Assembly: GCA_008632985.1 (NCBI GenBank) | Contig: QPGO01000008.1 | Location: 600,979 to 664,978 of the forward strand | Source of the DNA: Psammoneis japonica | Taxonomy: Eukaryota | Reading direction: 5' to 3' | Length of the DNA: 64,000 nt | Part shown: positions 237-54,823 of the stretch, in pieces | Layout of the letters: each line of letters opens with the position of its first letter | Numbering within the stretch: the stretch's first letter is position 1 | Position numbers and translations under genes: made by a program | Notes under the pieces: model-generated | What the model saw: the letters and a program-made list of their open reading frames with translations, nothing else | Told to the model about the DNA's origin: nothing | The model's database searches: none

Positions 237-2288
237 TAGTGTTGGGCCATTTACGATTTGTTTGCGCTGTTTACATTGGCAATTCCGACGACTTTCTCGT
301 CATTCGTCATGTTGTCATGTTGGTTGCTCGGATGGAACGAACTCCGAGCTCCACAGAACGATCAGTCGGCTGAGTCATCGTCATGGCTGAAAATGACGAT
401 GACGTCATGGCCCCGATTTTATTTATTTGTGCAGGTTCGCGCAAAAAAGTGAAAAGTGAAAAGGCACCACAAAGAAAACGTTCACATCACAACATCATGC
501 GTTTCTTTCTCACACTGTGAAAATGAAACCAGGAAATTGCCAAAAAACATCGAATCACCAGCATAGACAAGCAAGCATCAGTGACAACAAGAAGCCACAT
601 GATGAACAACACACTGTCTGGGGAGGCTGCAGACGTGACAAACAAAAAATCAGAAAAAGCGCTGCACAATGTCGAGCGTCACAAGCTCAGGACAAGCAAC
701 AAGCAACAAGCGCCAGTGACGGGGCAAGAAGCCACAATGCAATGAACAACACATTGTTCAAGGAGCTTGGATTGGTGACATGGAGGCCATGCCGAATGTC
801 ACTTCTTTTGCATCTTGAACTTTTGCAGGTCAAAAAAGAAGAGCACCACACCACACCATGAAGAAAAGATGAAAAAGACGACAATGGCCAGCTCGGCGAG
901 TCCCCGCCATCCCTGGTGCTCACAAGCCCACACTGTTCTGATGCCATTGACAACTCATTTGCACTTGGGCAATGCCCCATTGAGATTGAGCTCTTGGAAG
1001 AAGAGAAGCCAAACTGTGCATGCTGGCACAGTGAGCTCAACGTCAGCCAGTTTTTTCTTTGTGAAAAAACAGTCACACGCAGCATTTGCCAGATGATGTC
1101 GGCCAACAAGAGAGACCACTGTTGCTTTGATTTGGCAGCAACTTAGATGGTGAGTGCAATGAATCCACCTTTGAAGCAGATGAATGTTGAAATCTAAAGC
1201 GTTTGTGATCCACTGTGTTTTGGGCCACTGACGATGCCAAGAACAACGTGGCTGGTCATGCAAGGCAAAGATGGGTGCCAATTTGCTGGAAGATCTCTCT
1301 TTCTTTGCAACCCAAGGAAGAATGACACAGCAACACATGAGATGACAAACAATTGAGCAAAAAGACTGGTTCACAACAATTGATGAGCAAGCATCTCTGG
1401 ACACAACAGCTGCAAGAAAATCCTTGTCTCCAACCCATCTGGCATGTCATGTCAAGGGTCTCTTGTTCTTTGTTTTGCTTTTCATGATGTGCTCAGCTAA
1501 AGATTGCAGCTCTTCTTTCACAATCACCATGACTGCAGAGGCACAGCCAGTTGTTGGGTGAATGCCCCCCCTTTCTGCATGTTGCTTGTCCTGAGGAACT
1601 CAGCAGACCTGTGGCACAAAGTTTGTTTGCTTTGGCAGAGCTGCTGGTCATCTCACAGTGGTGCGTGGAACACTGAGCACTGTCAAGGGCATTCACAACT
1701 CTTTTTGAATCATTTTTGTCAAACCATTTGTTTGACAGAGCATTCATGACTCAACTCAACAAGAGTTGCCAAAAAAGGCCAAAGTTGGCCATGTTGGGGG
1801 TGTGACGTCAATTTTGCAAAGCAGTGCTCTGCAAACCACATTGAACGCTGCTGCCGCAACTGTGCACAAGAGCCACCCAATGTTGTGATTTCAGTGCAAA
1901 GAGACAAGGTGGGAAAGCATGTGAGTCAAGACAGCAACTTGTCATGTCTCAGAGACCCCCATCTCTCATTGCACCATCACAGCAGCACAGACAAGGTGCA
2001 ATGTGCCCACTCTGCCATTGAGAAGCCAGCATCCAGCTGACAGGTTGTCACAACAAGGGTGCAAGCATCATGGAGAGCACTTGTCTTTGTTGCTGATGAT
2101 GCACACCATGGAGCTGGCGAAAGAACTCCACTCCACCAGCTGCAACAATCAAGAACAGCAGCTGGGGGAGCTGCTGCCCATGAAAGATGATGAAGACATT
2201 GCAGAAACTTGCCACACATGTTGTTTCTTCATTTGCATGATGTTGAACATGCTGAGATTTGCCATGAGAGAAAAAATTGTTGACTTTG

Positions 2289-2321
<33 letters not shown>

Positions 2322-4099
2322 TTGGTCATTTTGCCAAAGAGCCGACAACATTCAAAAGTGCCGTTGTCATTGAAAAGATTTGAATGCTCTCCAAGATGCT
2401 TTCTCTTCTCCTGTCTGTCTCTTGCCCTGCAGCCCAGCTTCAGTTTTGGGAGAGGCACTTTACAAGTGCTGTTGCTCTCAAAGCCATCTCCACATCTGGG
2501 ATGCCAACAATCCAGGTGTCACACATTCTGTCAAGAATTTTCAAATTAAAGCCCCAGGCAAATTCTCCATTTAATCCAAGAATGTGTCGATTTGTCAAAT
2601 CTGCATTTGTGAGCTGTTCCACAACAAATGTTTTCATTCTTGAATGAAGTCAATGTGATTCTCTGCCACATGGACAAGACTGCAATGCAGTTTGTGTTCA
2701 TGCCAAGTCCTGAATGAAGTGCAACCCACTTTCCTGGATCCAAAACTCCACAGTCATGCACCAAGTTCTTGCTCCAAATTTTTTGCTCTCTGTTGTTGCC
2801 ATTCTTTGTTTTTGTGCAATGCTCCCCCATGTTGCACTTTTCATTTGCTTTTAACTTGTGGTTGCTCCTGCTCTTTGCTGAGTGATTGCTGCATGGTGTG
2901 ATTGATGTTTGCTTTTGGTGCATTCCTTCCATCACATTGTCACCTTGACATTTCTCCAACACGCTTCATTGGTGATGCAGTCTGATGGTCTTGTTTGTCC
3001 CTGATGCAAATGTTCTGGGTTTGGTTCCAAGTGTGGTCTTAGTCAGCACATTGCCACCAACTGCCTCTTTTCTGTGTGTCCAACCAAGTCTTTTGTTTGT
3101 CTGTGTTGCAAACAACATGGTTTTGACTCAGAATCCAGGTGCAGCATCACCTTTCTCAGCACTGCACTGCTTCTGCTGTTCTCCCTTTGCCAGGAACACA
3201 GTCACACTCAAGAACTGAAATGTTGCCCCTGTTTGGTTGGACATTGGCTGCTTCACTTCCTTGGGATGCTGCCTTTGTTGCCTCTCTTGGGTCCAACACC
3301 AATGGACCCACATGTCCCCATTGCCAAGCTCCCTTTTCCAACGTTGCCCTGCATCTCCAGAAGCATGCACCCTGCTGCAAGAAAGAGGAAGCATCCCTTC
3401 AATGCTCTGCTGCTGTTTCAATGCCGTCAATCCACCCCCCCCCCCCCCCCAACAATGACACTTTTGGCGACAATGATGATGACTCAATGTTTGGTTTTCC
3501 CCTTCCTGAAGTCCATTTGAGTCCAGATCCACCTTCTCCTGTGCACTCTGACAATGTTTCTTCTGTCTGCTCCCCCTCTGCTGGAAACTGTCTGCACCCT
3601 CCTGTCAGATGCTTGGCTCACTCAACTGCCACTGCCAATGCAGTGCTGTGAACACCTGCCAATTTACCTTGTTTGTCAACAATGGTGGTGTGTCTGCCCT
3701 TGGAGAGGACAGACCTGTGGATGTTCCCAAGTTCATCACAGCTGATTGTCTTGGCAGCAATTTGGGTCCTCCCTTGATGTCACATCCAGCAGAAGATGCA
3801 GCTCTCCCTCCTGTCTGCATTGACTTGGCTGCAGATTGCTCATTTGATCCTGAGAATCCACTGGGACTGACATGTGACTTTGCCCCTGATGAGGACTTTG
3901 ATGTTCCCTCCTTTGGTCCACTCGCCATGCACTGTGCCCATGGTTTGGCTGTTGCATCTCTGTTGTTGGTCAGGTGTTGCAATTGCATGCAGAAAAAAGT
4001 TTGGATTTGACAGAGCCTCCCACTGTGACTCCTGTGGCAATGCATTGACTTCTGGAGTGTGCTTTCCTGACATCCCTTTCCCCACACTGCTGTTGTGAT

Positions 4100-5300
4100 T
4101 CTCCAGTGCAACAATCCAACACAATGACAGAAGCATGGCCCCAAATGCCATTGTTCCCCACCTTTCCCAGTTTGCAGTTTTGCCAAGACTCTGCAAGATC
4201 TGCTCACCAAGCCAGTTTTCTGTGATCTTTCAAAGTTGCAGGCAAATCCAAACAATCAATGTTTGGTCACCTTGTGAGCTGCCTCCTTTTGACAGTGATT
4301 TAGATCCTGATGCTGCCCATCAGGGTGGCAACATTTGGTTTCCACAGTGTCCTGGTGACTGGCAATTGTTGACTCAAAGTCAAGACATGGGAGATGGAGA
4401 GTGGCTGCAACATTGTTCCAATGCTCAGGAATCTGTGCCCAATTTCCAGCATCACCTTGTCAATTGTTCTGACAAGACTGGAGTCAATGCAGTCAATCAA
4501 GCCTCTCATGTGCTCACTTGCAATTGCTCAAGAACATGCTTGTCATGATTGTTGTTGCTGGTGTCCTTTTGGTTTCATTCCGAATGTGGACAAGAAGGAC
4601 AAGTCTGGGCACCTTGTTGTTGCCAATTGTTGCCTCATTCTAAAGTCAGTTCTTTGTGGACTGTTTCATTGCCAGGCCAATGCACCCATTGTCATGCAAT
4701 CATTGGAGCAGAGCACTGGCCTGTCAGAACCACAGTGCACTGCAATTCCCTGTTGGGTGACATCCTCAATCAAGAACAAATTTGTGGCAGAGTCATGAGC
4801 CAAAGCAAGACCGAGCAACTGTCTCACAACTGCCATGTGCCCTCATCCCTTTCAGACAATCAAGATCCCCTTCATGTGCTTGCAAGTTCTTTCACCAAGC
4901 TTTGTCAAGTTGCTTGTTCCATCTGATTTGGGACCAGACCCCAAGGACGACAACAGAAGCCGGTGTTGGCATCAGTTGTTGAAGCATGTTTCAACAAAGC
5001 ACCATGCAATGACCACACAGAAAAGGGAGAGAAGGAGCTTTCTTCCCTCTGTTGGCACATGAAAATGTGTGCCAAAATGCCAAGGAAAGTGTTTGGACAG
5101 CATGCAGTTGACAATGCTCATCAATGAAACTGAAAGTGCTGTTGGGCCGACTGCCAAACAGGGGTGGGTGGCCCAAAACCTTGGCACCAAAGTAAAAACA
5201 ACTCTCCCTCCATGTGATTGTGCGCCACCGCCAGCAACATGACCAAATTGATGCTTGGTCTCAGGCATGTGATGGCAGCAATTGCAGCAGTTCACTGCAA
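4100..5300 (+). mobile_element. Degenerate Plavaka-like DNA transposase relic (frameshifted, hypermutated)
   Basis: Ordered fragments SFAKTLQDLL..NPNN, GEW, SDKTG, IKPLMCSLAI..WCPFGFIPN, LKSVLCGL..Q, LLGDILNQEQICGR..LSHNC..SDN resemble recalled Plavaka transposase motifs (DKT, LEPxMFTL, WRPLGFIP, IGDxxxxDKLCGR, LCRxC). Confidence 0.55.
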
Positions 5301-6274
5301 CCATGTTCACTTGACACCTGCATTGATTTCAACAATGTGATGGGAAACAGATGGTGTGTCAATTTGTGGTGAAGTGGACTGGTGAATCATGCACGCAGAT
5401 GTGCATCATTTGGATGTTTGCGGTCACTCCATTTGGGTGGCAGTGATGGCAGTTGGAGATGCAAGCAGTGCATTTGTGTTGGGATGAATGAGATTGTGGA
5501 GCATTGGTGGAACAAGGGTGTTGGAAATGAGGAGGGAACAACCCAGTTAGTTGTTGATGAAATGTTTTACAGGAAAAGTTGCAGAATTTAAATCACACAA
5601 AATGTGCACTGGTGCATGTGTGTGGCTCACATTGGAGCACTGGAGCACAGTTCAAAACAGTGGTGGGTTTTGAAAATTTCAAATGTCAAGTTAGAAACAT
5701 GCTCACAAATCTGATGCAGTGGCCTGTTTGAATGAATCTGGGAGAAGCAAGCAACGGCAACACAGAGAAGATCACTTGCAAAGTGCATTCATTTCATGAC
5801 TTCTTGAGTCACAACAAACCAGGTGGAGTGCAGCAAACAGTGCAACACAAGAGCTGCCTGTTGGAAGGAAAGAAGATGGAGGAGATGGTTGTCACAGGAG
5901 TGACAATGCAAGATGGTGGCAGTGCAACATCAAGCAGTGAGTTGGGTTGAAGAGGGCAGGACAAAGAACAACAGCTGCACTGACAAATTAGAGTTGGCTG
6001 CTTTGGTGTGCTTTGCAGTCACCATGAGGAGTCCTGCAGCAGCAGGGGCTCTTCAATGTGTGAACAAACAAGTGCAGGGAATTGAGCCAACTCCAGTCAG
6101 TGGGTGGGGGGCGGGGACTCAAGTTCTGTTGTGACACCAGCAGAGGGATGTCATGCAATGGATCAAGCTCCAGCAGTTGGCAAGAATTTGACAGGGTCCA
6201 TGTTGATGAAGGTGGTCAATGAAAGTGTGCAGACATGTCACAAGCTCACAATCTTTGGCAGATGACTCACCACG

Positions 6275-7000
6275 GTGGAAGGAGAGTGCATGAAAATGGC
6301 TCTGCAGGAGTTGAGGAGCATGGCATCTGTGCTGGAGGCATTCTGGGATGCATGCCAAGAGGCACTCAGGAAAAAACTCAACCACAAAAGGAACAATGTG
6401 CAGGACAATGCAAGGAGGAGGATGAAAGGCAAGCAACACAGTGCAGGCATTCAACAGACAGGATCATCTGATGGGCCAAGTGTGGGTTCCATTGTTTTCA
6501 TCAATGCAGTTGCTGCTTTGGAGGGGTCACTGGTTGAGTGAGAAAATTTGATCAAGGGCAGGGCTGACAAAGACATGCGCACATGGCTCTTGGAAATGGC
6601 CATGCCAACTGTGGTGGGCCAAGCACAGTTTGGCAGAAGCATGACCAGTTTGCTCCAAGAGGGACATGCCATGTCATTGGAGGCCTTTGCTCTGCTGGCA
6701 TGCTTGAGCCACTGTGACAAGGTGGTCAACATGGTGGAAAAATTGGAGAAGGATGATGACATTGCAAGGCACAGAAAGCTGATGACAAAAGATGCTGCAG
6801 CTGCAAAGTGCACGGCAATGGCAAAGGGGGATTGGCCAAGAGGAACCAAGGATGGAGCAAGGAGGGGATCAAGAAGCACAATGAACTGTGTGAATGGGCA
6901 AAGAAAGACCAAGAGGACAATGAAGGTTTCAGTGCATGGTTCAAGGAATGGAGGCAAGAGAAGGTGAACTTGTCTCCAAGGAGGCAGAGAAGAAATGCAA
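6275..7000 (+). pseudogene. Degenerate transposon-associated ORF (EAFALL...GWSxEGxxxYNxL...VxxDR type)
   Basis: SLEAFALL and GWSKEGIKKHNELCEWAKKDQE. Reverting CA/TG to TA and CA to CG gives WSKEGIKKYNELYEWVKKDRE, a motif I recall from repetitive diatom ORFs near Plavaka-type transposases. Confidence 0.45.
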
Positions 7001-9649
7001 GAGAGAGGAGAAAAGGAAGGAGAGAGAGAGGATGGATGGGGTGCACTGATGGGAGAGGACCTGCTGCACACAAGGCCAGTGGCTGCCTGCAATGACACAG
7101 AAGCAATTGCAGCCATGGCCAACAAACCAAACTGGTGTGTGAATGCAAACTGCAGCAAATGACAAAATCTGGAACATGGCAAAACCAAAGAGGCAAACTG
7201 CAATGCAATTGTCAGTCAAGAACAAATGGCAGTTGCAACATTTGCTTTCAAAACAACAGAAAGAGACAAAATGCAGAAGGATGTCACAGACAAAGATGGT
7301 GGAACATGTGCAGCAAGAGATGTGATGAAGGAATGAGGAACAGCAAATGTTGAAATTGTGGGCAAGAACATTCACACTTCAAAGTGGGGTGCAAATTTAG
7401 AATCAAAAAGCTCACAAACTTGGTCAGCTCTGAACTGACATTGCAAGGAAGACTTGGCTCACAAGTTCACAACAATCTGGGAGATTGCAGTCAAGAAATG
7501 CCCAGATTGTGACAGGTGGTCAGACCCAGATTGTTGGCATCCTGCTTTGCCAGTTGTTGGAGTTGAGCACATGCTGCTTCTCTTGATCATCTCTGTGTGA
7601 GCAGTGTGCTGAACTGTCTTTGACACAAATGGTGCAAACAACAAGTGAGAAATGTGATGGCATGCACATCCAGTGAAATTTTGCTGAGCTGCAAGTGTGA
7701 CAACAACAATTGAGAGGCTCTGTGATGGCTGAGATGCAGCAAATGCACAAGTGACCATCACTGCAGCTGTGGACCAGACATTGGAAATGGAGACTTTTCA
7801 ATTGCCAGATGCACAAAACCATTGTCAAAGGTGCCGAGAGACAAAAATGTGGCAGGGGCTGAGTGTCTCAGTGGTGCAGTTGTTTCAGATTTTGGATTGG
7901 CAACATTTGAATGCCCAAACTTGTGACACTTGTCATGGCACAAACACAGCTCCAAAAGGAGCCAAAAATCAGGGCTGAGCAACATCAGTCACAAACTCAA
8001 AAATCAAGCTCTGGACAATCTGGAGTTTTGCAACATGGACTTGAGTGCAGCCTGGTGAAAGTTCTGAGCCCAAGTGCACATTTTTTGTCAGCGTTGTCAA
8101 TTGCACCAACCCTCCAGGGCTTGTCTTTGTGTTGCTGAAGCATCACAGGAAGCATGGAATGAACACATGATCATGTGACTTGGCCAAGAAGGTTGTGTCA
8201 GCAGTCCAAAAGAGACAAGTCACAGAGTCAACAAAGGAGCACAAATCTGCCTGCAGCATTTCAAGCTGGGAGGCAGTGGCTGCATTGATTTCTGCTGATC
8301 ATTCTGTGCCTGCACTTTCACCAATGACACAAGGGTCAACAGCACTGGCCCAGGTTTTCCCAGCTCACAGTGGTTTGGTCCCAGCAGCCATTCAGCCAGT
8401 GGGAATGGATTTGAACAGATTGAGATTGTGGCAACAAGTTGCTGTAGATGGAGTTAAAAAAGGGATAAAAAGAGGACAACTCTGCACCAACATGAGAGCT
8501 GCAATTGCTCAAAAGTCAACAACAGTTGTTGTGGCACTGATCTAGAGGCAAAGCAGGGGTGGCAGTGCAGAGCAACCCCCCAGGGCCCCTGCAATGTGTG
8601 CTGACATCAGCAGGGCGGTGCAACTGATGGTGACCAACATCCAGCAGGGTGGCTGGGCTGTGGCTGAATGCCACATCTTTGCATGTCAAGAGACACAGAT
8701 CCTCTGCTTTTGTTTGAGGATGTGCGGGAATGTGATTTTCCTGCTCTGACTTTGTGCTGTGCAACATCCTGGTTGCTGCTGTCCTTTCTGCCCGGTGCAG
8801 CGGATGTGTCAGGATGGAGCACACATGAAGGCAACTGTGTCCATGATTGCAGCACAGCTGAAAAACTGACCACAGCTGTGGCATCACATGAGCCACATGA
8901 GAGACATGTGAGCACAGCAGCCAACCCTGGTGCAGCAAAACTGTGGCTGATCAGAAGACCATGGAAGCCAAGAGAGACCCACATCACCACCACATCAACT
9001 TGCTTGTGAGTGAGAAGCCTGGTGCGTGACAGCTGGTCTTGGTCAAGTTAGGAGTTGCAAAGCTGTGTCAGAGAAGCTCTGGATGATCTTACAAATTTTT
9101 TGAGTTTAGCTCAGCAGCACCCCAGACCTTTTTTCCTTCATGCTGAATCTCTTTTTGAGGCACAGTCTGCAGCCCTGGAAGAACAGCCATGTGTCCCTTG
9201 TGGGGGCAGGAGCATCATCCAGCACCTCTTTGCAAGCAGGAGGATTGTCAGACCACCTGTTGGTTGATGCATGTGCCTTCTGGAGCAGAAGTGCTTGTCG
9301 GCTCTCCAGGCTTGAACACGCCTTGTGTGGAAACATGCACTTTGCCCCCTCGCTCTTTGTTGTTTGCTCAAAGGCTGCCATGCTCAGGGATCTGCTGCCC
9401 CATGCCGTGGTTGTCCCCACTGCAGTTGCTCCCAACAACAACTTTGTCATCCTTGTGACAGTTGGTCTTGTTTGGCCAGCAGATTGTCTGGGCTGGGCTG
9501 GCGGGGACGGCACCTCTTGTGTCAGCGTTCAGAGGTGGTGGGTGTCTCACAGCAGCCAGCTGGGCCATTCCAGCTCACCTTGCCATCTCCATCATTCTCT
9601 GTTTCTTTTTGTTCCTCCTCATTGTGGTCAAAATCATTTTTGGTTGGCA

Positions 9650-10023
9650 TCATGGTCCAAAAAGCCAGGCAAGGGGCTCCTCCTTGTTTCCACCCCACGG
9701 AGGAATGACCCCACGACACATCATGATTGTCCTCTCAAGCATCAGCACATGATCACAGTGACTTGGGGAGGCTTGGCAAGGAAGATGAGGAGAGTTGGAA
9801 GGGAAAATTTGAACACCATGTACACAACAGGGTTCCAGGAAGTCTCTGTTGCAAGGATCAAGGCCCAACGAAAACTGAAGGGGAACGAATCAGAATCAAT
9901 CTCCAAATCATCGTCAAGCATTTTGGTTGGTCTGACAGTTGCACGTGCAGAGCTCGAAAGCCACCGCACGCAAGAGAAGCGGACAGAACTGGAACGAATG
10001 AAGCGAAGCAGCGGCATATCCAT
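9650..10023 (-). pseudogene. Candidate host gene head (mitochondrial-presequence-like) decaying into block A
   Basis: MDMPLLRFIRSSSVRFSCVRWLSSSAR lies head-to-head with the UCH gene. CpG-rich at the 5' end and progressively TA/CG-poor downstream. Confidence 0.3.
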
Positions 10024-11823: not shown

Positions 11824-13561
11824 TTATGTGCATCCCTCTTCGTTGGGAGTCTTGAAGTCACGCATGTGAATCCTGTAGGTGGAGAAGAATGAAAAAGATT
11901 GTAAGAGAAGGATTATCACCGAGACGTCTTGAAAAAGGATTGGTACTTCATACTACTCACCATGCATTTGCGCCATACTGGACGTGGAGAAGAATGAAAA
12001 AGATTGTAAGAGAAGGATATCACCGAGACGCCTTGAAAAAGGATTTGTACTTCATACTACTCACCTTGACGCCTTTAATTACCGGCTTCGCTTCTGCAAC
12101 GAGGCATGAAAAATGATGTAAACAATGAGAACAATCATCACGAGCTCTTGAAATAGGCCTTGCACCACAAACTTACCGTGAATTGTTCGACCGTCCTTTT
12201 TGTCCGGATCTTCATCGAGAACACTTGGCCAAATGACGGCTCTACCGCGCTTGGGGGTCACCGTCATGCCAAGCATGGGGAATTCAGTGCCACCGCCTTC
12301 CTCGACGTCATTCAAATCTAAAGTAGACAAGAAAGGGAAGCGAGTTAGCTTGCTATTGAGAAGTCTCGGCGGACACACCGATTCCATATTCCATACTTAC
12401 AAATATAAACGGTAAGTAGTCGAACTCCGCTTTGGCGATCGAGCTGGTGTGGAATGTAGTCACTGTGGGTATGGTAATACTGGTTTTCTTCGTACTTGAG
12501 CATTTGCAAGTACTCGGAGTTGAGTTCAGGGATACCTGTGAGGTTGGAGATCCTGTCCATGACATTCCTTGCCAATGGATCCTTGTAGCATTCGTTTTGA
12601 CACCACGAGTTCATTGAAGTACGCCCGTTGTTCACAAAGTTGTCGTAAGTTCCATCGAACTTGCGCTCTCCCACATCAGAACTCCTCTCGTATCCCTCCT
12701 CGGCACCCAACTCAATGAGCCTTTCGCACTCTTCCGGAGTAGCGAATTCCTCAAACATGACTGCCCATGGACCAATATGGTAATCATCCTCGGCCTCTTC
12801 TTGTCTCTCCACCTGACCAGCTGCTGACTCTTCGTCTTTATGGGGCGCGGCCCTTGGCGAAAGACAATTCTTGTCCGGTTCAGGTCGAGAGAGAATCTTT
12901 GGCTTGAACTGTTTGTACTCCTCGTTGGTGACGATACGTTCAAACATGCGGTTCAAATCGCCTGGCTTCCAAACGTTTTGTTCTCGAATGGCGTCCTTAT
13001 CCAATGGACAACGGCTCTCAAACATCAACTTGTCGCAAGACTGGCACGAAGGGGCACAGTTGACCACCATGTAAGCGGGGTTATTTGTACACTCCCCTAG
13101 CAAGGCCCAAAAGGCGCAGTCCTCGTGTTGGTTCTTGCAGTGAGTCTTGATTTCTGTGTACTTTGGCTCGGTATACACAACGTCCCTCATATAAGCCATT
13201 GACTTGTCAATCCACGCCTGTATCTCGTCAGCGCGTGCTCCAACGACATTCTGTGGAACTCCGAGATCAATCGCACTTTACAGTATTGTTGCATACGGGG
13301 GGCGTGCATGATGTGGGTGAGGAAAAAACGAAAACAGCAGGGGAGGTCGAAGCACTCAAAGTAAACTTACACCGAGTCCTCCTGTTTGACGCTTCGAACT
13401 TCTTGTCCTAAACTTGGAGCGGCTTGCTGTAGAAGACATTCTCCATCGCTGTTAGTCTGACATTCTCCGTCGCTTTTGCTGCTGTTCAATCCGAGAACGA
13501 CACTCGCAAGAACAACGGAAATTGCAACAATGAAGTTACGGGGCTTTATGGATGAAAACAT
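11824..13561 (-). CDS. Secreted/ER ShKT-domain prolyl 4-hydroxylase (P4H paralogue 1), 6 exons
   Basis: Signal peptide MFSSIKPRNFIVAISVVLASVVLG; ShKT CKNQHEDCAFWA..ECTNNPAYMVVNCAPSCQSC; 2OG-Fe(II) motifs RTS, HSDY, YLNDVEEGGGT, H-E, KYGANAW; C-terminus IHMRDFKTPNEEGCT*. Introns include 11873-11960, 11978-12064 and 12094-12176. Confidence 0.9.
11873..12064 (-). repeat. Two near-identical adjacent introns (88 and 87 nt) flanking a 17-nt exon
   Basis: 11873-11960 and 11978-12064 differ by 4 substitutions and 1 indel. Both are GTGAGT...CAG on the minus strand. Exon 11961-11977 encodes YGANA(W). Confidence 0.9.
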
Positions 13562-17893: not shown

Positions 17894-20800
17894 GCGGGCT
17901 AAGTTCCTTGCGTCAAAATACGTGGAAAGGTTTGTTGTCGGCGTCACGGGCTGCGGCGCGGCATCGTGCTCCGCGCTGCGCGTGGGCACGAACGTCGCCC
18001 CAGTAGAATACGATCACTCTCTACTCTAGCTAGCTGCCACTCTAGAGAGTAGCTGTAGCAGCTAAACCCCATCGCCGTACTAAAACCAACATGGTCTCAC
18101 TGCGAGTTGGTCTAGGACAAGAAGATGATGTTCCGCACTGCTGCAATTGCGCTGGTCGCCGTGACCTCCCGCTTGCTCACAGGGCCAGAGCAGGGCCACT
18201 GTCTTCGTCACAGTGGGTGGACACAAGAAGGACAAGTGAACCCGAAATGCAAACCTGCCAAAGTGCAGAAACATGCCCATCAACCTGAGCCTGCTGCTGT
18301 CGACAGCAACATGGAGCGGCACATTTCAAATGTGTGTGGTGGTGTTTGTTTGAGATTCACCTGCCACATCCACACACCACACACCATCATGTGATCTTCC
18401 TTTTGTGCAAGAACACACTCTGTTGCTTGGCTTCTTTTTGCAGCGGGGCTCACCACCTTGCTTGGCTTGGCAATGTGACCCCTTGATGCACTGTTTTTGC
18501 AGCGTGCTGAGTGCAGTGGCAGGTGATCTGTGACAAGGAGCACACATGCTTTGAGAGAGAATCCAGAAGAGGAGCTGCTGCAAATTGTGCTGGAGTGAGC
18601 CAGTGCACTCCCAAGCACATCTGAGCTTGCGGGGGGAAGACCAAGAGACAAAAGAGCAGAGAGAGAGAGCAGCTGAGCAGAGCCACCTGTCTTTCTGCCA
18701 AGCACAAAAGCAGTTGTGCAGATTTTGAGGATGAGTTTCACATGTCTCACAGAACAGCTGAAGCATCTTTCTTTGCTTGTTCTGACATGAGCACCTGCTG
18801 GGGGGGGGGGCTGTGGCAATGACAAACAAGGTCAGTCAGCTGCCAACAGAAAAGCCCCCCCCCCAGCAAATCAGAAGAAGAGCAAGAACAAAGGGCAGAG
18901 TGGGTGCTTGACCCACTTGAAGCCCAGCTCAAAATTGATGCTGTGTGTTTCTTGCCCATGCCCCACCCCTTGCTCTTCTTTTTCTTCTTCTTCTTTGCTG
19001 TGAAGCACAGATCATCTGCTTGCTGTGAAGCAAAGATCATCCTCTGCACCTCAGCCAGAACCAGTTGGAGAAACTGAGGGCATCATTGTGGGATGAGCAG
19101 CAGCAGGAGTTGTTTGGAACAACATGTGCTGCATCTCAAAAGATTGGCCTGCTTGGTGTCTTGACATTTGCAAGTCTGATTTTTGGCAACAAAGATGGGC
19201 AATGGCAAGGTGTGACCTCTGCAAATTGATGCGCATGAAGAGAGTGTCAGCAGGCAGCAAAATGTCACATTTTCTTTGTGCTGCCACCATGCCAGCATCT
19301 CAACCAGCTAACTGCCAAGCCCTGTGTCAGCTGCAAATGTGCGCAGAAGCTTTGGTGTCATGTCAAATGCTTTTCCTTGGCCTTTGCTTCCCCCTTGATT
19401 TTGAAAGCAGGTTTCATGACATCCTTGTGATGTTGTGAATTGTGCATTCTTCAAAAACAAGCTTGGAGTGAGCAGCAAACTGCAGGGCTGTAGAAGCCTT
19501 TGCTTCTCAGCTCCCAGACTCAAAGGCACCAAAACTCAAAAGCATCAAATTTGTTAAAAACAAACTGTGCCTGTCTCAGCAGCAGCAGCAACAACAACAG
19601 CAACAATGACAACAGAACGCACCCAACCTTGCTCCCAACTGAATGCACTGCATTTTGTAAAAGCTGAGACAACTTTGACAAAATGGGAGGACAGCACTTT
19701 GTGCAGAGCACATGAATGAAAGTTGCACAGATCTTGAAAGCAGCAATTTGCTGGTCCTCTCAAAAGTTTTTGGAACAATGGATGCCTTGGCAAAAAAAAC
19801 TCAGCTTTGGCAAATGAAGGCTCTCAATTGTCTCACAGTCCTCAGGAGGATGTGTGCACAACAAAATGCACTGACTTCCCCACTTCACTTTTCAACTCCT
19901 GGGCTCAAAAGCACCAAGTTTCCTCAGAGCAATGATGTGCCCATTTGACAACAAGGCCATTGCCCTTTTGTTTCAGTCATTTGTCACACTGCTTGCTCTT
20001 TCACAAGCATGGCATGCTGCCATGTGCTGCAGAAGTTTTTGAAAGAGTCAGAGAAAGAAAGATTTTTGGGTGTGTGCACATTTGAAGTGTTTGCTGTCAA
20101 TTTTTTGTGCCATGCCTTTCAGCACAGAATCTTGATCCAAGCATCAACTTTCACATGGCTGTGCAACAAAACAAAAAAAAGCTGAATTTTTCCCCTCAGT
20201 GGAGCTGTGCAACTTGATCTGTGGTGCTTTCATGTGCAAAGCCCAAATCCTGATCTTTGTCAAGTGCCTGCACGGGCTGACTTGTGCCAAGCTGAGCTGA
20301 AGCTCCAGAGAAAATGTGGGGAGTCAAGTCAAAAGTCAGCTGACACTGGTGCTGCTAAAGTTGCAAAGCTGTTGCTGGCTTTGGTCCCTTGGTGCAGCTG
20401 CAGTGCCAAACATGCCCCACAAAAAGTTGGCCAACCTTCATGGCAAGCTCAATGCCATGGGGAGAACAACACCTGCCTGTTTTGGTGTTTTTGCAAAAAA
20501 TTGGCTCAAAGAGCATGTTGCTGTGAAAGTGCTCCTCTCTCAAGCATTTGTGGCTCCAACAGGGGTCAAAGTCCAGCCAATTCTCCTGACAATTTCAAGG
20601 TGAGTGTGGTCCACATGGGGTGCAAGACTTGCAACTTTGGAGACAGGCAACACAATGTTGTCCTGCCAACACCTGAGCAAATGCATGGCAACAAGAGCGC
20701 AAGACCCGCCCACCATTTTTGTGGGGCTCTGTTGCCCATTTGACCTCTTTGATGCTTTGAGCAGGTGGGGCTGCAAGCAACCCACAATGCTCATTGTGAG

Positions 20801-21122
20801 CCACACTCTTCCATTTTCAGATTCAACACCTGCACCTTTGCAGCCAAAACAAGCCAGGGAGGAGGAGCTCCACTCACTCAAATTTGTGGGGTCAGTGGTC
20901 AGCAGCTTCTGGCCACTTTCTTCTTGAACCATGCACCAAGAATCTTTGGATGAACTTTGGCTTGCATTTTTGTTTCTTGCTTGCTCTGAGCCAACTCTCT
21001 CCAACTGGAAAATGCAGAATGCAGAACCACTGCAGTTGACACTTCCTTGAAGAAATTCTGTGTGAAATGTTGCCATTTGTTGCCATTCAGGAGAAAACAG
21101 TTGGACAAGTTTCAATGGAGCC

Positions 21123-21283
21123 TGACAGACATCCGAGATGGGGAGTGCACTCCCTTGTGTCGGACAGACTGGCATGGACAGCATGGAGAGATCCGATGAT
21201 CTCTCCTTTGCTTGCTTTCTTTCTCATTGAGTGCACGATTGTCATCTGTCCTGGATGTCCGTTAGATTGTCCCGACACCGCCA
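21123..21283 (+). repeat. 5' LTR
   Basis: TGACAGACATCCGAG...CCGCCA; aligns without gaps to 28027-28187 with 15 mismatches. Confidence 0.95.
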
Positions 21284-21493
21284 GTCCGTGAGGTTGTGAG
21301 CAGCAGTGCGCTGTTCCTCTTCCTCTGTGCTCCTCCACCGCAACGCCTGTTGTGTGACTTGGCGACCTTTTCTTCATTGAAATCGTCATCATTGTCACAG
21401 CTGTTTTTTCACCTCTCAATTTGTGATCAAACGACCACCGCAGAACACACACCAGACCTCTGCGCAGGAATTTGATTTTTTTCCCGTGCAACC

Positions 21494-23595
21494 ATGGTGA
21501 ACAAAAATCAAAACACCGTCGATTTGACCAAGATCAAGACAACACGGGTTGAATTCAGCCCACATGATTGCTTGCCCGATGCCCACATTTTCCTGAACAC
21601 CTTCCATTCGGACGCAATCCCTGCTCCTGAAGATCTTTTAGATGGATTTGCTCCTCAAGGCCTCAAGCACGATGCTGTTGCTGTTCTCCATCATGAGATT
21701 GTTCAGAATCTCATCATCCCTGAAGCTGCCCTGACCAAAGATCTCACATGAATCAGGCCGATCATTGAAAAGGCCCCTCTCTTTGTGGCCACCCCTCAAG
21801 GCTCCCCGGTTCATCTGAACCTCAGCACTCTTCAGAACGCTGTGGTCGAAGCGATCACAGAGAATCACAGCACCACAAAGGCACATGTTGGCACTTTACG
21901 TTTCCATTTCAGTCCTGGTTTCTCCGGCATTGTGATTGCTGGGATGACATTTCAGATGATCCGCATCCAGTCCCACCGGCCACTTCAAGTTCTACATCCC
22001 CATCGGTTGCTGCTGCAGGTCCTGCTCTTGAAGACTTTGCCAAGGCCTCAGCTGCTCATTTGCCTGGTCCAAAACAGTTTGAGCAAGCTGTGACAAATGC
22101 GTTGAAGAACTCCACTCCCAAGGTGTCATCTCCTGCACCATCTGCCATGGCTGCCACTGGCACAGCTTCTTCATTGACTGCTGCCAGTGCCTTGCACACC
22201 TTCAATCTGAAAGGACTTCCAAAGGATGTGCTGGCCTGCTGTCAACGCAAAGAAGCCGGGAAAGCAGTGCTCGGAAAATCACTGGCACCTTGCAAGTCTG
22301 GAAACCTTTGTCACGAGGATGGTGCTGAGCGTCTGATCCTCACCGATGGTTCTCTCTTTGTTCATTGCACTGACTGGGATGCGAAGTCTTTCCTTCGTGA
22401 CCCTCTCACTTGTGACAATGTCTCTCCTCAAGGAATTCGTGCGTGGTGCACCACTGCAACCCAACAAGCCTCGGCTTGTGGCATGTGCATGCACCCTCTG
22501 TGGTGTTTCATCAAGGATGGTGGAAACTGGGGTTTCACATGTGGCAATGATCCAACCGATGATCTCCCTCTCCAGATGACTGTGCCACTGGACCAAATGA
22601 AACTGACCATCTTCCAGCACATTCAGAAAGTTGGAATTTTTTCCGGCAGAGTCCAAGCACCCTGACATTGTTCGTCAATGCTGTGGTGATGGATGTGCTG
22701 CTGTCAAGATGATTCTCTTTGACATCCCGCCGATTTGGACGAAGCGTCCACATGAGTTGATCAAGAGCCACCCGCACCAAAACAATCTTGTGGTCCTTGG
22801 CTGCCATGCTCTCTTCAGAGACCACCTCCAGCTGCGAGCTGTCATCTCCAACGTTGATGCTTCTCTTGACAACCCTGGTGAGCTGGGTGTTTTTCTCAGC
22901 AATGCTCGCCATGGCGAGCACCTTCACCACAAAAAACCGCAGATGCCCGGGAAGACAAGAATCAACAACACAAGTTCACACAGAAGAAGATTGTTGAAAC
23001 TGTCAGTGCGATTCTCAAGGAACCGGATGGCCCTGCTCTTCGTGTCAAGGACCCTCCCAAATGTCCTCTACGTCGTCTTCACACTTCGCCTGCTCCTTCT
23101 CTTGCAGCTCCCGTCTGAGGTCTTGACTTGCTTCCCAAAGATGAAGTCTCTCCTCCGCCTCCAGCGATTGAGGAGCCTCCCAAGGAACCTGAACCTCCTG
23201 CTGCGGAAGAACCTGTGGAAACCATGGAGCATTTTGTGAATGAACTTGCTGCTGTGGATGTCCCCACAGATGATGATGCACAGGCCCTCCATGGTGTCTG
23301 CAAGGCCTGCATCCACAGGATCAAGTCCTCTCCTGCCATTGCACAGAACCGTCCGTGTGCAGTTTGTGGTGACAACCACTTGTTCCATGAGTGTCCTGTG
23401 TTGAATGATGCTGAGTGCCTGCGCACTCATCTCATTTGGTTCTCCCAGTTCCTCCAACATGATCAGCATGCTCGTGATGCACTCAAGTCTGACACAGCCA
23501 AGAAGGATTTTTCCTGGGGCCATTGTCATGTTCCGACAAACAATGCCGCCCATCCTCCTCCAATCCAAAAATTCCTGCAAGCAGGGCAACTGTGA
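21494..23595 (+). pseudogene. gag-like region of the Copia element (interrupted)
   Basis: Successive broken ORFs after the 5' LTR; zinc knuckle RPCAVCGDNHLFHECPVL near 23350. Confidence 0.7.
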
Positions 23596-23838
23596 AAGAG
23601 GGTCCAACCGACTCGTCACCTTCCGCTGATGTTCCTCTTTCACCTGTGTCATTTGCCAACCATCTTTTGGGCTCGACGAAGGCTGGCACTCCAGATCCCA
23701 AGACGATTCCTGATGATGACCCTGGCAATCACAATCAGGGGAGGGAACCAGACCTTTCTACACTGGATGCTGATGTCCCATTGTCCACTGATCAAGACCA
23801 AGAATTTGAGCATCTTGACATGACCAACACCCCTGCAT

Positions 23839-26800
23839 TTGTCGCCCCTCAGTGCTGCACGCATCTCCCCAATTTTTTCTCCCCTGGAGTCACCTGCGAC
23901 CTTTGCATTCTTGACTGCTCCAGTCATCCCCATCAATCATGTGCTTCATGATTCAACGACATGTCGTGCTCAGATTGATGCTGGCGCTTGGGTGTCCTGC
24001 ACAGGGGACAAGAACCTCCTCCATGCCTGTGCTCCTTTTGGACTGGACAACCCTTGTCCTTTGAAGATTCTTCCTGCTGCTGAAGGCTCTGATGTGGTCC
24101 CTCATGGCTTTGGTTGTCCACAGGTGCCTGCAGACAATCCTGAAGGTTTTCTTCTTGTGTGCACTTTTTACCATCCCAGCCTGCATTCCACTTTGATTGA
24201 CAAACGTGATTTTGCACGGGCTTCTGGTTTCAAACCTCAGTCCATTCGATCCGAGGTCGGTGCTTGCACTCACACTGCTTCCGCTGATGCTCAAGAGGCA
24301 GTTGTCCATGGCATGCTTCGACATGGCAAGGTCTTCACACAACCCCTGGTTCCTCCGTCTGCATCTCATGTCCCTTCAACATCAACGACCCCTGACTTGT
24401 CCTTGGTTGATGATGTTGATGATGTTGATGATGCATGCCAATGCGCAGTCTTTTTTGTCAATGTCCAACAAAGTCCATCCGATCCCTTGCTGATGGATGC
24501 TGAGCTGTTTTTGATGCAGTGTGACTCGGCTCCCCATGTCTCACCTCCGTTGTCTGCCCCTGCTCCAGTCCGCTCTCTCAAGGTTGAGACTGAACATCTT
24601 CTGTGGCATCAATGCCTTGGACATCCCAGCGATCACTGCTTGTACAATGCTCACAAGTGCATCAAGGGCGTCCCGAAGTTCCAACATGCCAATCCTGTCC
24701 TTGACATGTGTCCTGCGTGTGTCCAAGCCAAGCAAGTCAAGACTCCTGCTGGACCAAACACAACCCAAAAGGTGACCCAGCCATGCCAAGGCCTTGCTGT
24801 GGATTTTGCTTTCGCTGGCCAGGCTTCCAAGAATGAAGACTGCAAGGTTGATCATCTTGGACACAGTGGTGAAACGTGTTGGATCGCTGTCTACGATCAT
24901 CACACACGGATGCTCCATGGAGTGGCAAGGGTTTCCAAAGCCAGTCCTCTCAAGTGGCTTTGCCGATTCTTGGATGGACATTCACCAAATTGTCGTGACA
25001 AATGTGCACTCATGGACCAAGGTGGAGAATTGTGCAAAAATCCCAAAGTTCGTGACCTCTTTGAACGAGAATTCCAGCATGACATCTGTCCTTCTGGCGC
25101 TGGTGCATCCAACCAATGTGGACCTGTTGAACGCTCACATTCAACTGTTGAAAATGCGATTCGTGCAATTTTAATTGGTGCCAACCTTCCGATTCGATTC
25201 TGGCCCTGTGCTTTTTACCATCACCTCTGCATCAAGAATGCTGCTCCTGCAAAAGATCAAGATGCGGCACCCATCACTCTTGCCACCGGAAAGGTTGAAG
25301 ATTTTACTGCTCTGAAGACTTTCAGATGTCAAGTGTGGTCCAAACGGTCCACTGCTCGTTCTGCTGCTTTCCGGACCAATTCCAAGAAGGGTGCATTCCT
25401 TGGCTGCCTTCCAAACACCCTGAAGAATGTTGTGTGGTGGGATCCTGAGACTGATGAAGTCAAGACGGCCAAGCATGTGTGCTGCGATGAAGGTGTGAAT
25501 GATCTGTTTTTGGATCAACTTCCTCCCAATGCCATCCATTTACAGTGTGTGGAAAATGGTCAGCCTTTTCCAGCTGAAACACAGGACACCACCGTTCCTC
25601 TGTTTGCCTCTTCGTCGAATCCTTTTGCTGCAACTGTTGCATGTGCCATGAAACGTCCCCCAAAGGATCCCACCTGTGGTTTTGGATTTTCCCAGTGTGT
25701 GCTGATGGACCGTGTCTGTGCATCACAAATCAAGCAGTGCAGTCATGCAGCATCTTTGTTCTCTTCTCTCCGTGCTGCTCACAACAAGATTGTGGGTGCA
25801 TGCATTGTCTCTGTCAACAAGCATGAAGCATTTGCTCCAAAGGATGCTGAAGAGGCTTTGTCTCAGGTCTTCCATGATGAAATCCCGACCTTCGAGATTG
25901 CTTTTGCGCCGGAACAATGATTGGATTCTCGCACCCTTGATGAGGCATTTGAGGAAGCGGAGTTGTTTGAACCTGATTCCTTGGAGGATGACTCCCATGT
26001 TCCTGAACTCACTTTGGAGGATGTGTGATCTGTCACGGCCCTTCTCTGTCCTGATGATGATTTTTCAGATGAGGCCATCCCTGCTGATGTGTTCCATGCC
26101 CACCTCAATGCGATTTGCTCCCGCTCTCTCACTCCGGAGGAAGCTGCTCTTGACTGCCTCACCCGTGCCAAGCTTCGTAAACTTGACACATGGCCTGAAT
26201 GGGAAGAAGGCGAGCAGCGTCAATTGGATCAATTTTGTGCCCTTGGTGTGTGTGGTCCTCCTCAACCACGTCCCCCTGGCGTGAACGTCATGCGTCCGCA
26301 TTGGGATCACATGGTGAAGCCGGATGGACAACGTCATTCTCGGCAATGTGGTGATGGTTCCAAGTCGGAAATGCCGGCCTTGCACAAGTTGACTTCCACC
26401 TGTTTGTCATGTGTGGAACGCTCCATCAAAAAGATGTTTTTTGCTCTCAGTGCAGCTGTGTCACATTGTGTCTTCGGCGGTGATGCTCGGGATGCCTGCG
26501 CTCATTCTCCTGGTCCTTCACAGCCAGTTTTCGTTGCTGTTGATGATGCACACATGCTGCCTGGCATGAAAAGAGATTTGGCAAGAAAGCGCCCCGCCAT
26601 TGTGTTCTCCCACTCAAGCATGCTCTTCAAGGTCACCCTGAAGCTGGTGTCCTTTGGGAAAAGCACATCAACTCAATTCCAACGGGTGCAAAACTTCTTT
26701 TCTGCAACGCTGCTCATGACAAGTGCATCCATTCTGGTGAATGTGATGGTGTCAAGGTCCTTCCACTCCATCAGGTCGATGATTTTGCTCTTGCTTGTCC

Positions 26801-27884
26801 CTCCAAAAAGATTGCAAAAGAGATCTACAACCATGTTGGCAAGGCTCTCCAGATGGAGAATGAGGGCACTCCTCCGTTCAAGTGTTTGGGCTCAGTTGCT
26901 GAGTTCAACGGCATTGATGTCATCCAAAATGACGGCTCGATTGCTGTCAATGTTGCCAGCTGCCTTGATCATGTTTTCAAGACCCATGGTTGGGATGCTC
27001 CCACTGCAAATGAATCTGAGTCTGATTTCAAGGCTGCACCTGTGCCGGTTGATTGTGTCCCTGATCTGTGTGCCACTGAAGGTCCTGAAGAGGGCACTCC
27101 TGAGTGCAGTGCTCTTGCTGAGTCCCAGGGTTTCTCTTGCCGTTCTGTTCTGGGTGAATTGGTCTTCACCTGCTCCTGTTGTCGTTTGGACATTGGTCAT
27201 CCCATTGTTGCCTTGTCCAAGTTTTCCAAGGCCCCGGCTGAGCTTCGTTGTGATTCACTCAAGCGCATGGCCAAGTGTTTGCGGTGCACCAAACATTGGG
27301 GGCTGACGTGTGAGAAGTCCAAGCGCGATCCCGGTCTGCCTCCTTGCAATTTCGAGTGGCTTGAGGATGACCCATCTCTCCCGGACTTCCCTTGTGCTGA
27401 TGACCTTTTCCAACTTCTTGGTTTCATTGACACAGCACATGCCAGTGAACCATGGCATCGCCGCTCTGCTGCTGGATGTGCGCATGTCCTTGCTGGTGCT
27501 GCAATTGACTGTTGTTGCCATGCACAGATGATTGCCACCACCAGTTCCACGGAAGCTGAGTTTCTCGCGGCTGTTGCTGGTGCGAAACAGACCCTGTGCC
27601 TCCGCATGGTTCTGGAAGAATTGGGCTTTCCTCAACGTGATCCTGCTCCCTTGCACATTGATGGCTCCTCCGCCATCCAGATGTTCAATGACAAGGTGCC
27701 TGCGGAGCGATCCTGCCATGTTGACATTCAACATTTTGCTGTCCAAGACTGGTGTGACACAGGCAAGATTGTCACTCAACATGTCCCGGGTGTCATTGAC
27801 CCTGCTGATGTGCTGACCAAGGCTGTGGGTTGGACGATGCTTCGTTCCCGCCATGCCCGCCATTTGATGGGACATTGCCATTGA
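23839..27884 (+). pseudogene. Copia pol (protease, integrase, RT, RNase H) with frameshifts, stops and hypermutation
   Basis: QIDAGA (protease), LWHQCLGH, CPAC, VDFAF, DQGGEL, GPVERSH, FWPCAF, FLGC, RPHW, GGDARDACAHSP, ALQGHPEAG, HQVDDFALA, GFIDTAHA, SSTEAEFLAAV, HVDIQHFAVQDW, DPADVLTK. Confidence 0.93.
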
Positions 27885-28026
27885 CTGTCATCAGGTTTTG
27901 TTGTGGATTGAGTCTTGGGTGTGTCTCTTTTTTCTTTGTTTTGTTCTTTGCCATTCTGGTCCTCTCTTTTCATTCGGATCGTCCATTTTTTTCTTGTTGA
28001 GCATTGCATTGCTTGTCAGGGGAGGA

Positions 28027-28187
28027 TGACAGACATCCGAGATGGGGAGTGCACTCCCTTGTGTCGGACAGACTAGCACAGACAGCATGGAGAGATCCGA
28101 TGATCTCTCCTTTGCTCACTTTCTTTCTCATCTAGCACACGATTGTCATCTGTCCTGGACATCCATCAGATTGTCCCAACACCACCA
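28027..28187 (+). repeat. 3' LTR
   Basis: Preceded by the PPT and followed by TSD GAGCC. Confidence 0.95.
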
Positions 28188-36345: not shown

Positions 36346-36704
36346 GTTTGTTGCTAAATAGGGATGCAGTTGGGTGGTTTGCTTTTGCAAAAAATCCAGA
36401 TTGGCAAAGATGTTTGAGGTCATTTGAGGTCACAGCGCGGGATTTGCCGACAAAACGGAAACGACCAAATGACCTAGAAATTCGACTCATTCGACTATTT
36501 ATGCGCGACCACTTGCGCAGACGCAGACTTTTGCTGTGGCGATGGCGATGCACATCACACCGCCGGAAAGATCCCGGCGGCGACCATCGATTGTTCTTGC
36601 TGGCAATTGACAAACGCAGGGTTCAAAGGGCTTTCAATGGCGGCTACATCCATCCTTACTTTCAGTAGAATCTCATATATTTATAGTCGGAAAACGTGTT
36701 CAGA

Positions 36705-54312: not shown

Positions 54313-54499
54313 CAGCGCGCGGAGTGGGGTTAGGGGTGTGAGAATGTGGTTCAGGATTTTTCCTGCTACTATTAGCATTTGTGTACAAATGCATAAATAA
54401 ATGTGAGGACATTTATATATAAAAATATAATGAATAAGATATAAACTGCCACGTAACCATGACATCACCATATTCTCCCCTACCGACCACAGGGGTGGC

Positions 54500-54780
54500 A
54501 ACTATGGTAGTACTCTCTACTCTCTCTAGCTAGCTAGAGCTAGAGTCGTCTAAGTACTACCGGTAACTGTAGTTACCCAGTTGGCCATTGTTTAGCTCCA
54601 CATTACTACGTCTACAGTAGAAGTAGAGGGCCTTATTCTCTCTATCTTGTTGCTAGCTAGTAGAGTGTAGCTACAGTACGGTAGAACATACAGTAGGCAT
54701 CCCTGTAGTAGCCTCTAAGGGGAGAGTCTAACTACCGTAGGTAGAGAAAAAATTACTATCTCTAGCATATATATGGTACA
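54500..54780. promoter_or_regulatory. Intergenic CTAG/TAG-rich tract
   Basis: gtagtactctctactctctctagctagctagagctagag...gctagctagtagagtgtagctacagtac. Confidence 0.4.
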
Positions 54781-54823
54781 ACAAACGTTCTCTCGCTAGA
54801 AAAGAGGTATGATCATTATAAAG

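Follow-up and report, generated by a model that had tools for sequence, protein, structure and literature searches.

The window analysed in this study, a 64,000-base stretch of contig QPGO01000008.1 (positions 600,979 to 664,978), is eukaryotic DNA in which four segments have been almost emptied of the dinucleotide TA. The subject of this report is the process that removed these dinucleotides, and above all its traces in a Copia retrotransposon and in an inverted-repeat element. Elsewhere the window carries the long open reading frames (ORFs) of host genes, encoding Elp4/PAXNEB, valyl-tRNA synthetase, a choline-transporter-like protein and several ShK-prolyl-hydroxylase paralogues. The best relatives of the valyl-tRNA synthetase piece share 73-82% identity with it; those bearing a name come from the diatoms Attheya, Thalassiosira, Cyclotella, Odontella, Seminavis and Nitzschia, with an entry labelled Alexandrium as the single exception. 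The nearest named relatives of the Copia polyprotein originate from the diatoms Fistulifera and Cylindrotheca. Since the relatives of both proteins are mostly of diatom origin, the source of the window was treated as a diatom.

The four depleted stretches extend over positions 423-9894, 18214-30468, 50982-53118 and 63281-64000. Within them the observed/expected ratio of TA is 0.00-0.14 (mostly 0.00-0.08 per kilobase), while most other bins have ratios of 0.45-0.80. TG and CA are raised to 1.4-2.2 times expectation in the same DNA, and CG stands at 0.02-0.3 in the old parts of the blocks and at 0.4-0.8 in the Copia element and in block C. The G+C content of the blocks is unchanged. Their boundaries are sharp to within tens of bases, and one of them falls exactly where an inverted repeat ends, at position 53218. 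The features of the depleted DNA are the following (window positions; a strand is given where one applies):

423-9894, depleted block A: TA and CG nearly absent, TG and CA about doubled
18214-21116, older depleted DNA to the left of the inserted Copia element: CG observed/expected about 0.05
21117-21284, plus strand, 5' long terminal repeat (LTR) of the Copia element: length 168 bases, differing from the 3' LTR in 17 columns, TG at four TG-versus-CA sites
21285-28020, plus strand, Copia interior: gag, integrase, reverse transcriptase/RNase H
28021-28188, plus strand, 3' LTR: CA at those four TG-versus-CA sites, and again at three sites that are CG in the 5' LTR
28189-30468, older depleted DNA to the right of the inserted Copia element: dense TAs resume at 30521
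50982-53218, depleted block C with a non-autonomous inverted-repeat element: TA observed/expected 0.11-0.14, CG 0.45-0.82
51429-51549 and 53101-53218, terminal inverted repeats (about 120 bases) of the element in block C
63281-64000, depleted block D: zero TA, extending past the end of the window

The Copia element is nested in older depleted DNA that is poorer in CG. Its interior contains one frameshift (near 26553) and only two stops in 1308 aligned codons, yet it is riddled with missense changes, and the reverse transcriptase was not recovered by a Pfam search at E 0.001. When the mobile DNA is ordered by age according to the CG observed/expected ratio, the DNA flanking the Copia element comes first (about 0.05), followed by the Copia element (0.4-0.56) and the inverted-repeat element (0.45-0.82). 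As TA is nearly gone from all of them, in spite of these different CG ratios, the loss of TA must have proceeded much faster than the decay of CpG.

The Copia element belongs to a family with many diverged copies in this genome, as judged from the contigs that pile up on it in the only sample found to contain the window, a sample represented by three sequencing runs with no RNA run listed: at a likeness of at least 80% their summed depth reaches 1300-6500 on the element versus 45-120 on its flanks. Over positions 21039-28416 contig depth is 20-60 times that of the flanks, with 3439 contigs at this likeness or above. These contigs differ from the Copia element of the window at 1833 places, 1469 of them transitions and 364 transversions; the 40 differences that were listed include TG/CA and TG/TA pairs, and also many other changes.

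The direction in which TA was changed can be read from the Copia coding sequence. Fifteen Copia homologues were aligned by tblastn (segments scoring below 200 bits were dropped, as were columns covered by fewer than 10 homologues), and a column was taken as a conserved tyrosine when at least 60% of its 10-15 homologues carry tyrosine; one column duplicated at the frameshift was counted once. At the 36 columns of this kind the window reads cysteine (TGY) in 21 cases, histidine (CAY) in nine, phenylalanine in three, tryptophan in one and tyrosine in only two, and both retained tyrosine codons are preceded by TT or TC. The overall share of tyrosine in the window Copia is also low, 5 of 1308 residues (0.38%) versus 3.49% in the 15 homologues, while cysteine amounts to 5.66% versus 1.55%. 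The three phenylalanine codons (TTC, at 24334, 26473 and 27165) each follow GTC, i.e. they correspond to the TCTA context with a transversion; phenylalanine also occurs at these columns in 2-3 of the 15 homologues, and this may be natural tyrosine/phenylalanine variation.

The two LTRs provide a second record. Of their 17 mismatch columns 13 lie at steps derived from TA or CG, and four of these are TG-versus-CA pairs. LTRs are identical at the time of insertion, and such pairs therefore go back to ancestral TAs that were edited on opposite strands in the two copies. Taken together, the loss of tyrosine codons and the differences between the LTRs demonstrate that TA was turned into TG or CA in integrated DNA. 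The inverted-repeat DNA transposon has been edited as well, and its depletion ends where the element ends. Thus TpA editing (A:T>G:C transitions at TpA, yielding TpG or CpA) acted in place on integrated mobile DNA. The change is confined to mobile DNA, as the Copia and inverted-repeat elements show, and leaves neighbouring host genes unaffected; block A showed no match to a protein family. Two further features of the LTRs deserve mention. All four TG-versus-CA sites have TG in the 5' LTR and CA in the 3' LTR, which suggests that the hot strand changes close to where the element ends on its 3' side. Furthermore, the three sites with CG in the 5' LTR and CA in the 3' LTR raise the possibility that changes of C and A share a strand bias, although the numbers are too small for a test.

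These observations bear directly on the idea that RNA copies of the elements were edited by an ADAR- or ADAT-like enzyme and then reverse transcribed, so that the elements arrived already mutated. In its favour, the polymerase region of the Copia element has lost TA almost exclusively to TG on the sense strand (per kilobase, TA -44, TG +51 and CA +2). However, the LTRs differ at TA/TG/CA sites with opposite products, the inverted-repeat element and the unclassified DNA are equally edited, and depletion spans the older DNA around the Copia element and ends sharply at the ends of elements. We consider this explanation very improbable; as the sole cause, RNA editing is excluded because the LTRs have diverged and because both the DNA transposon and the DNA surrounding the Copia element are edited.

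The TAs that survive in the blocks are not a random sample. The original prediction, based on the letters of the window alone, held that they obey a context rule, lying in TYTA or its reverse complement TARA (TTTA, TCTA, TAAA or TAGA; Y, pyrimidine; R, purine), and that this is the footprint of an enzyme. Its tally was reproduced exactly, both between positions 600 and 9900 (21 of 26 surviving TAs) and in the Copia interior, 21285-28020 (13 of 14), and the two TAs at the element ends (...CTAAAACTCTAA...) are indeed retained in both inverted repeats. The same preference is found in the Copia-containing block as a whole (21 of 24 TAs in 18214-30468) and in block C (10 of 13 in 50982-53118). The depleted blocks together contain 65 TAs, 54 of which obey the rule; outside them the window has 451 conforming TAs among 1666 (27%), which corresponds to an odds ratio of 13 (Fisher p 5e-20). 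The predicted chance level of about a quarter was borne out by three baselines falling at 21-27%: besides the remainder of the window, these are the TG and CA sites inside the blocks, 1331 of 5347 of which (25%) would conform to the rule as TA sites, and the TAs of intact, sense-oriented Copia relatives, 2195 of 10403 of which (21%) lie in TYTA/TARA. Surviving CGs in the blocks, whose flanks were also checked, follow no comparable rule.

It could be argued that no selective mutator is needed, the bias arising from ancestral k-mer content, from TAs regenerated after editing, or from selection for signals resembling TTTA/TAAA. The TAs of the inverted-repeat ends, for instance, could have been kept by selection for transposase binding. 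Nevertheless, 83% of the survivors fit the rule as compared with 21-27% for the three independent baselines, and the bias thus persists when ancestral k-mers are taken into account, the very test by which a flank-independent survival of TA would have been revealed. The figure of 25% among the TG and CA sites of the blocks also argues against regenerated TAs. Moreover, the two tyrosine codons retained at conserved columns are ancestral rather than regenerated, the reversal of TG or CA to TA is rare where ancestry is known (2 of 415 sites in L057, a metagenomic copy described below), and the survivors are scattered through non-coding, degraded DNA. An origin without a selective mutator is hardly credible in view of these data. 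The predicted enzyme-like footprint withstood all three comparisons: the flank rule is real and was left behind on diatom transposons by a sequence-selective TpA mutator.

How the mutator reads its site is a separate question. The original prediction went further in stating that one flank protects both strands of the palindromic TA, and hence that the responsible factor recognises the duplex site or its shape, as opposed to a deaminase of single-stranded DNA or a generic mutation bias. In its explicit form this model assumes a single event reading double-stranded NNTANN, in which one TY or RA flank blocks the editing of both strands (by a dimeric enzyme or by a shape resistant to base flipping). 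The duplex reader did not find support. With ancestral TA numbers estimated from the host background, 11 of about 765 sites without a protective flank survive, 43 of about 262 with one, and nine of about 12 with two, i.e. survival of about 1.4%, 16% and 72% (minus log survival 4.24, 1.81 and 0.32). A single flank therefore gives partial protection and two flanks give near-complete protection. Since saturation amplifies the bias among survivors, a difference in rate of about 2.3-fold between sites with one flank and sites with none is sufficient to produce the rule. It is true that single-flank sites make up the majority of the survivors (43 of 63, versus nine with two flanks), as a duplex reader would have it, but their survival of about 16% is far from the approximately 72% observed with two flanks.

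The protective effect of one flank also depends on what lies opposite. An A at position -1 defines by far the hottest half-site, and a TY flank facing such an A preserves the TA in only 2 of about 79 cases, the hot side thus cancelling the protection. In the Copia element, read on the sense strand, TYTA accounts for 11 single-flank survivors (about 36 ancestral sites expected) and TARA for one (about 27 expected), whereas a symmetric reader predicts equality. The polymerase region gives the same picture, with kept versus expected numbers of 5/8.3 for TTTA, 2/14.2 for TCTA, 1/9.7 for TAAA, 0/7.8 for TAGA, 0/15.7 for ATAT and 1/12 for GTAC. As the lost TAs of this region reappear as TG and TYTA is spared, the sense strand of the Copia element must be the hot one; T-Y-T in front of the adenine spares it, while R-A on its 3' side does not.

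The link between flank and strand is not limited to the Copia element. When all blocks are considered, the protective flank is oriented in keeping with the local imbalance between TG and CA, i.e. the strand that is locally edited (Mann-Whitney p 2e-4; 9e-4 outside the Copia element): the mean excess of TG over CA is +0.08 around plus-strand TYTA survivors (n=21) and 0.00 around plus-strand TARA survivors (n=22). No tie of this kind exists for background TAs (p 0.42). Taking these results together, a strand-wise editor that works poorly at T-Y-T-A fits best, its dependence on the 5' context being like that of deaminases acting on single-stranded DNA.

Several points weigh against this strand-wise reading. 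The ancestral TA counts for the window are stand-ins, derived from the host background or from Copia relatives of 45-50% protein identity, and not reconstructed states. A strand-symmetric fit slightly prefers the multiplicative, duplex-like model of two flanks over the additive one (negative log-likelihood -35.0 versus -32.7, with equal numbers of parameters), although strand-symmetric counts cannot separate the two models. Of the two edited conserved tyrosine codons that stand behind TC, one became TGT, which is an edit of the supposedly protected adenine. The tyrosine codons yielded TG and CA at 21:9, but the dinucleotide totals suggest almost no gain of CA, and the baseline is to this extent uncertain. 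A crude k-mer excess over the host background places TTTG well above TTCA, the opposite of what complete 5' protection would give; we rejected this measure as unreliable, since it is confounded by CpG decay and ancestral content and takes negative values once CpG decay is subtracted. Finally, the sense-strand bias of the Copia element could in part result from editing of RNA copies before insertion. The model fit is at the same time a point for the duplex reader, which we consider unlikely on the whole.

As an independent check in which ancestral states can be established, we scanned metagenome contigs with the alignment of 14 of the 15 homologues and fetched 80 Copia loci, whose TA observed/expected ratio ranges from 0.83 down to 0.11. 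Of these, 33 mutually similar loci, hand-picked from similarity lists and mostly from one series of mat metagenomes, were used for the comparison, and a site was counted as ancestral TA if 60% or more of the relatives aligned there have TA, with a minimum of 5 relatives. The most heavily edited copy, L057, has kept 8 of 100 ancestral TAs; 55 were converted to TG, 32 to CA and five to other dinucleotides. The same copy retains 77% of CG and 83-90% of GC, TG and CA steps. Another copy, L027, keeps 51 of 130 ancestral TAs. Sister copies keep 91-95% of theirs, and the retention of CG is 72-80% in all copies. Since L057 differs from its sisters in TA and has lost an equal share of CG, TpA editing in this second lineage is specific to individual copies and separate from CpG decay. 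Among copies that are 82-92% alike (L057, L027/L026, L058, L044, L037, L025 and L047), TA retention extends from 8% to 95%, an all-or-little pattern for each copy.

Flanking bases were pooled over the seven most edited copies, leaving out L026, a 99.3% twin of L027. Survival rises from 0.35 for RTAY through 0.52 for RTAR and 0.57 for YTAY to 0.78 for YTAR, and in none of the seven copies does RTAY exceed YTAR. The motif spared in this family is SCTA/TAGS (S, G or C; odds ratio 3.1, p 3.5e-10), while the TYTA/TARA rule of the window has no effect (odds ratio 0.96, p 0.84). Common to both lineages is that a purine, above all A, in front of the T marks a hot TA site. A pyrimidine in front of the T and a purine behind the A are both protective in this family; as this is one base pair seen from two strands, it can be claimed for a duplex reader. 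For the editing of RNA copies the family is unfavourable: both products are present, as the 55 TG and 32 CA of L057 illustrate, and a G on the 3' side, a neighbour favoured by ADARs, is protective.

On the basis of all these results we propose that the depleted blocks are transposon-derived diatom DNA that was struck in place, after insertion, by a mutator converting TpA to TpG or CpA, the decay of CpG being a slower and separate process. Editing has run near to completion, and the TAs that remain are the ones whose context is edited most slowly. Each strand of a TA site would have its adenine edited in a separate event, governed chiefly by the bases that precede the T on that strand, where A is best and T-Y, above all T-T, is worst; one strand would be locally hotter, which in the Copia element is the sense strand. 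The agent may be an adenine deaminase of nucleic acids whose substrate is silenced or foreign elements in a transiently single-stranded state of their DNA, and the system may be of the same kind as the TpA hypermutation of Bigelowiella natans. The direction of change, action in place, independence from CpG decay, dependence on flanks and strand asymmetry were observed directly. We have higher confidence in the first steps of this scheme, before the identity of the deaminase, than in the whole chain up to an adenine deaminase of the B. natans kind, which we regard as reasonably probable.

Transitions at TpA may also be initiated at the thymine. A dioxygenase could produce 5-hydroxymethyluracil (5hmU), a base enriched at TpA, in silenced elements. 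Its mispairing with G would lead to T>C (TA>CA, or TA>TG when the other strand is affected), and in that case the flank rule would reflect the preference of this enzyme. The sequence alone cannot tell T>C from A>G. It has been reported that in dinoflagellates 5hmU is made enzymatically and is linked to transposon silencing (PMC11572971). No sign of 5hmU or of such an enzyme in diatoms turned up, no search dedicated to it being part of the work described here, and the authors of the B. natans study favour adenine deamination (10.64898/2026.01.13.699255). We consider thymine chemistry improbable and retain adenine deamination as the preferred explanation.

The editing has consequences for the coding appearance of the blocks. 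TAA and TAG together have fallen from 19.6 to 1.8 per kilobase, so that reading frames remain open, and stretches 423-9894 and 18214-30468 contain many overlapping ORFs of 150-700 codons on both strands and in all six frames. The overlapping ORFs of depleted blocks are likely to be called as false genes. In general, edited elements lose tyrosine, TAA and TAG, with the result that domain searches miss them and long false ORFs appear in all six frames.

Block A is probably old, degraded mobile DNA with no recognisable protein family. It holds 20 TAs in three runs of 9114 bases together, and at its right edge the last sparse TA (9821) is followed by dense TAs from 10017 onwards. A Pfam scan of the 76 ORFs of the non-Copia blocks gave no match in any of the 38 ORFs of block A; two weak matches, below the curated cut-offs, both lie outside it. 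The block also contains a (CT)n microsatellite (2285-2320) and a run of 18 C (3435-3452). Inside the inverted-repeat element of block C, where the right end of depletion is the repeat end at 53218, three tandem copies of a unit of approximately 180 bases, 82-85% alike, occupy positions 51643-52178.

Among the host genes, those encoding ShK-domain/2OG-Fe(II) oxygenases (prolyl-hydroxylase-like) flank the Copia block on both sides (12066-13277, 30858-31976, 33107-34244 and 35065-36429); they form a dispersed family whose members are 65-76% identical in DNA. Two 1-kilobase bins, 54001-55000 and 58001-59000, have an unusually high TA ratio (1.16 and 0.96, respectively, with about 0.6 elsewhere) and adjoin the valyl-tRNA synthetase and choline transporter genes.

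If the scheme holds, it would extend a genome defence recently described in a single alga to the diatoms, major marine primary producers, and would show that this defence can reach saturation on ordinary transposons. We know of no enzyme in nature that deaminates genomic adenine, and the adenine base editors now in use are built on a tRNA deaminase evolved in the laboratory. The flank rules and the strand bias may serve as testable fingerprints of the enzyme, as deaminases can be screened for a preference with ATA best and TTTA worst, on single versus double strands. We put forward only tentatively, and with somewhat more doubt than belief, the full statement that diatoms carry a natural, strand-by-strand TpA adenine editor of transposons, that its extended motif has diverged from one diatom lineage to another (TYTA spared here, SCTA in a lineage living in mats), and that it is the same defence as in Bigelowiella. 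If true, it would represent an old and widespread counterpart of the repeat-induced point mutation (RIP) of fungi with reversed chemistry, and natural deaminases of adenine in DNA could be obtained from it.

Several known systems invite comparison. Like RIP, the process described here is a dinucleotide-specific transition mutator that acts in place on mobile or repeated DNA, with sharp edges and a flank preference that depends on the lineage. Unlike RIP, which converts CpA to TpA and leaves AT-rich, stop-rich DNA, it destroys TpA, keeps the G+C content and leaves the frames open; the excess of TpA expected from C>T at CpA is absent, TA being at 0.00-0.08 with CA and TG enriched. The target of APOBEC3 and AID is cytosine, which they change in TC, CC or WRC contexts (C>T or G>A). 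The behaviour proposed here resembles theirs in strand-wise deamination, specificity determined by the bases 5' of the target and a locally hotter strand, and differs from it in that the change is A>G at TpA. The hyper-editing of repeat-derived double-stranded RNA by ADARs shares with it the A>G change and the preference for U or T in front of the edited A. ADARs prefer a 3' G neighbour, which in the metagenomic family is protective. Moreover, the substrate here is integrated DNA, as indicated by the divergence of the LTRs and the edited DNA transposon: instead of changes common to both LTRs and limited to retroelements, we found LTRs that differ and editing of a DNA transposon and of unclassified DNA.

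The decay of methylated CpG accounts for the loss of CG to TG and CA in the blocks but cannot remove TA. Its rate is a separate one, with about 72-80% of CG kept in all metagenomic copies irrespective of TA loss, and in the window the Copia element and block C have lost TA while still having CG at 0.4-0.8. The loss of TA is thus stronger than that of CG and independent of it.

The closest parallel is the TpA hypermutation of B. natans. In mutation-accumulation lines of this alga the mutation rate of two integrated viral regions is about 1000 times that of the remaining genome, with 230 of 231 hypermutations in integrated viral DNA being A>G or T>C, all of them at TpA (Mettrop et al., bioRxiv, April 2026; 10.64898/2026.01.13.699255). 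According to the same preprint, TpA-poor clusters rich in CpA and TpG are enriched in transposon domains, and an ADAT2-like adenine deaminase is proposed (10.64898/2026.01.13.699255). Its main text contains no flank analysis, the terms "context", "flank", "trinucleotide" and "CpG" occurring 0 times (10.64898/2026.01.13.699255). Our literature search for TpA hypermutation in diatoms found no report, the B. natans preprint being the sole match; another apparent match, PMC9258296, proved unrelated by term search. The phenomenon itself is therefore known from one preprint, while its presence in diatoms, the flank rules with their differences from lineage to lineage, and the asymmetry of the strands appear to be new.

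As far as the preprint describes it, the B. natans system agrees with ours in that only TpA is affected, the products are TpG and CpA, and the target is foreign or mobile DNA with normal neighbours. Both systems also show TpA-poor, CpA- and TpG-rich clusters linked to transposons, and in both the extent of change varies, between copies in our case and between lines in B. natans. The two differ in their hosts, a diatom (stramenopile) versus a chlorarachniophyte (rhizarian), and in their targets, which in our case are a Copia element, an inverted-repeat element and unclassified DNA, edited almost to completion: the TA observed/expected ratio is about 0.03 here versus 0.45 in the giant-virus region of B. 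natans.

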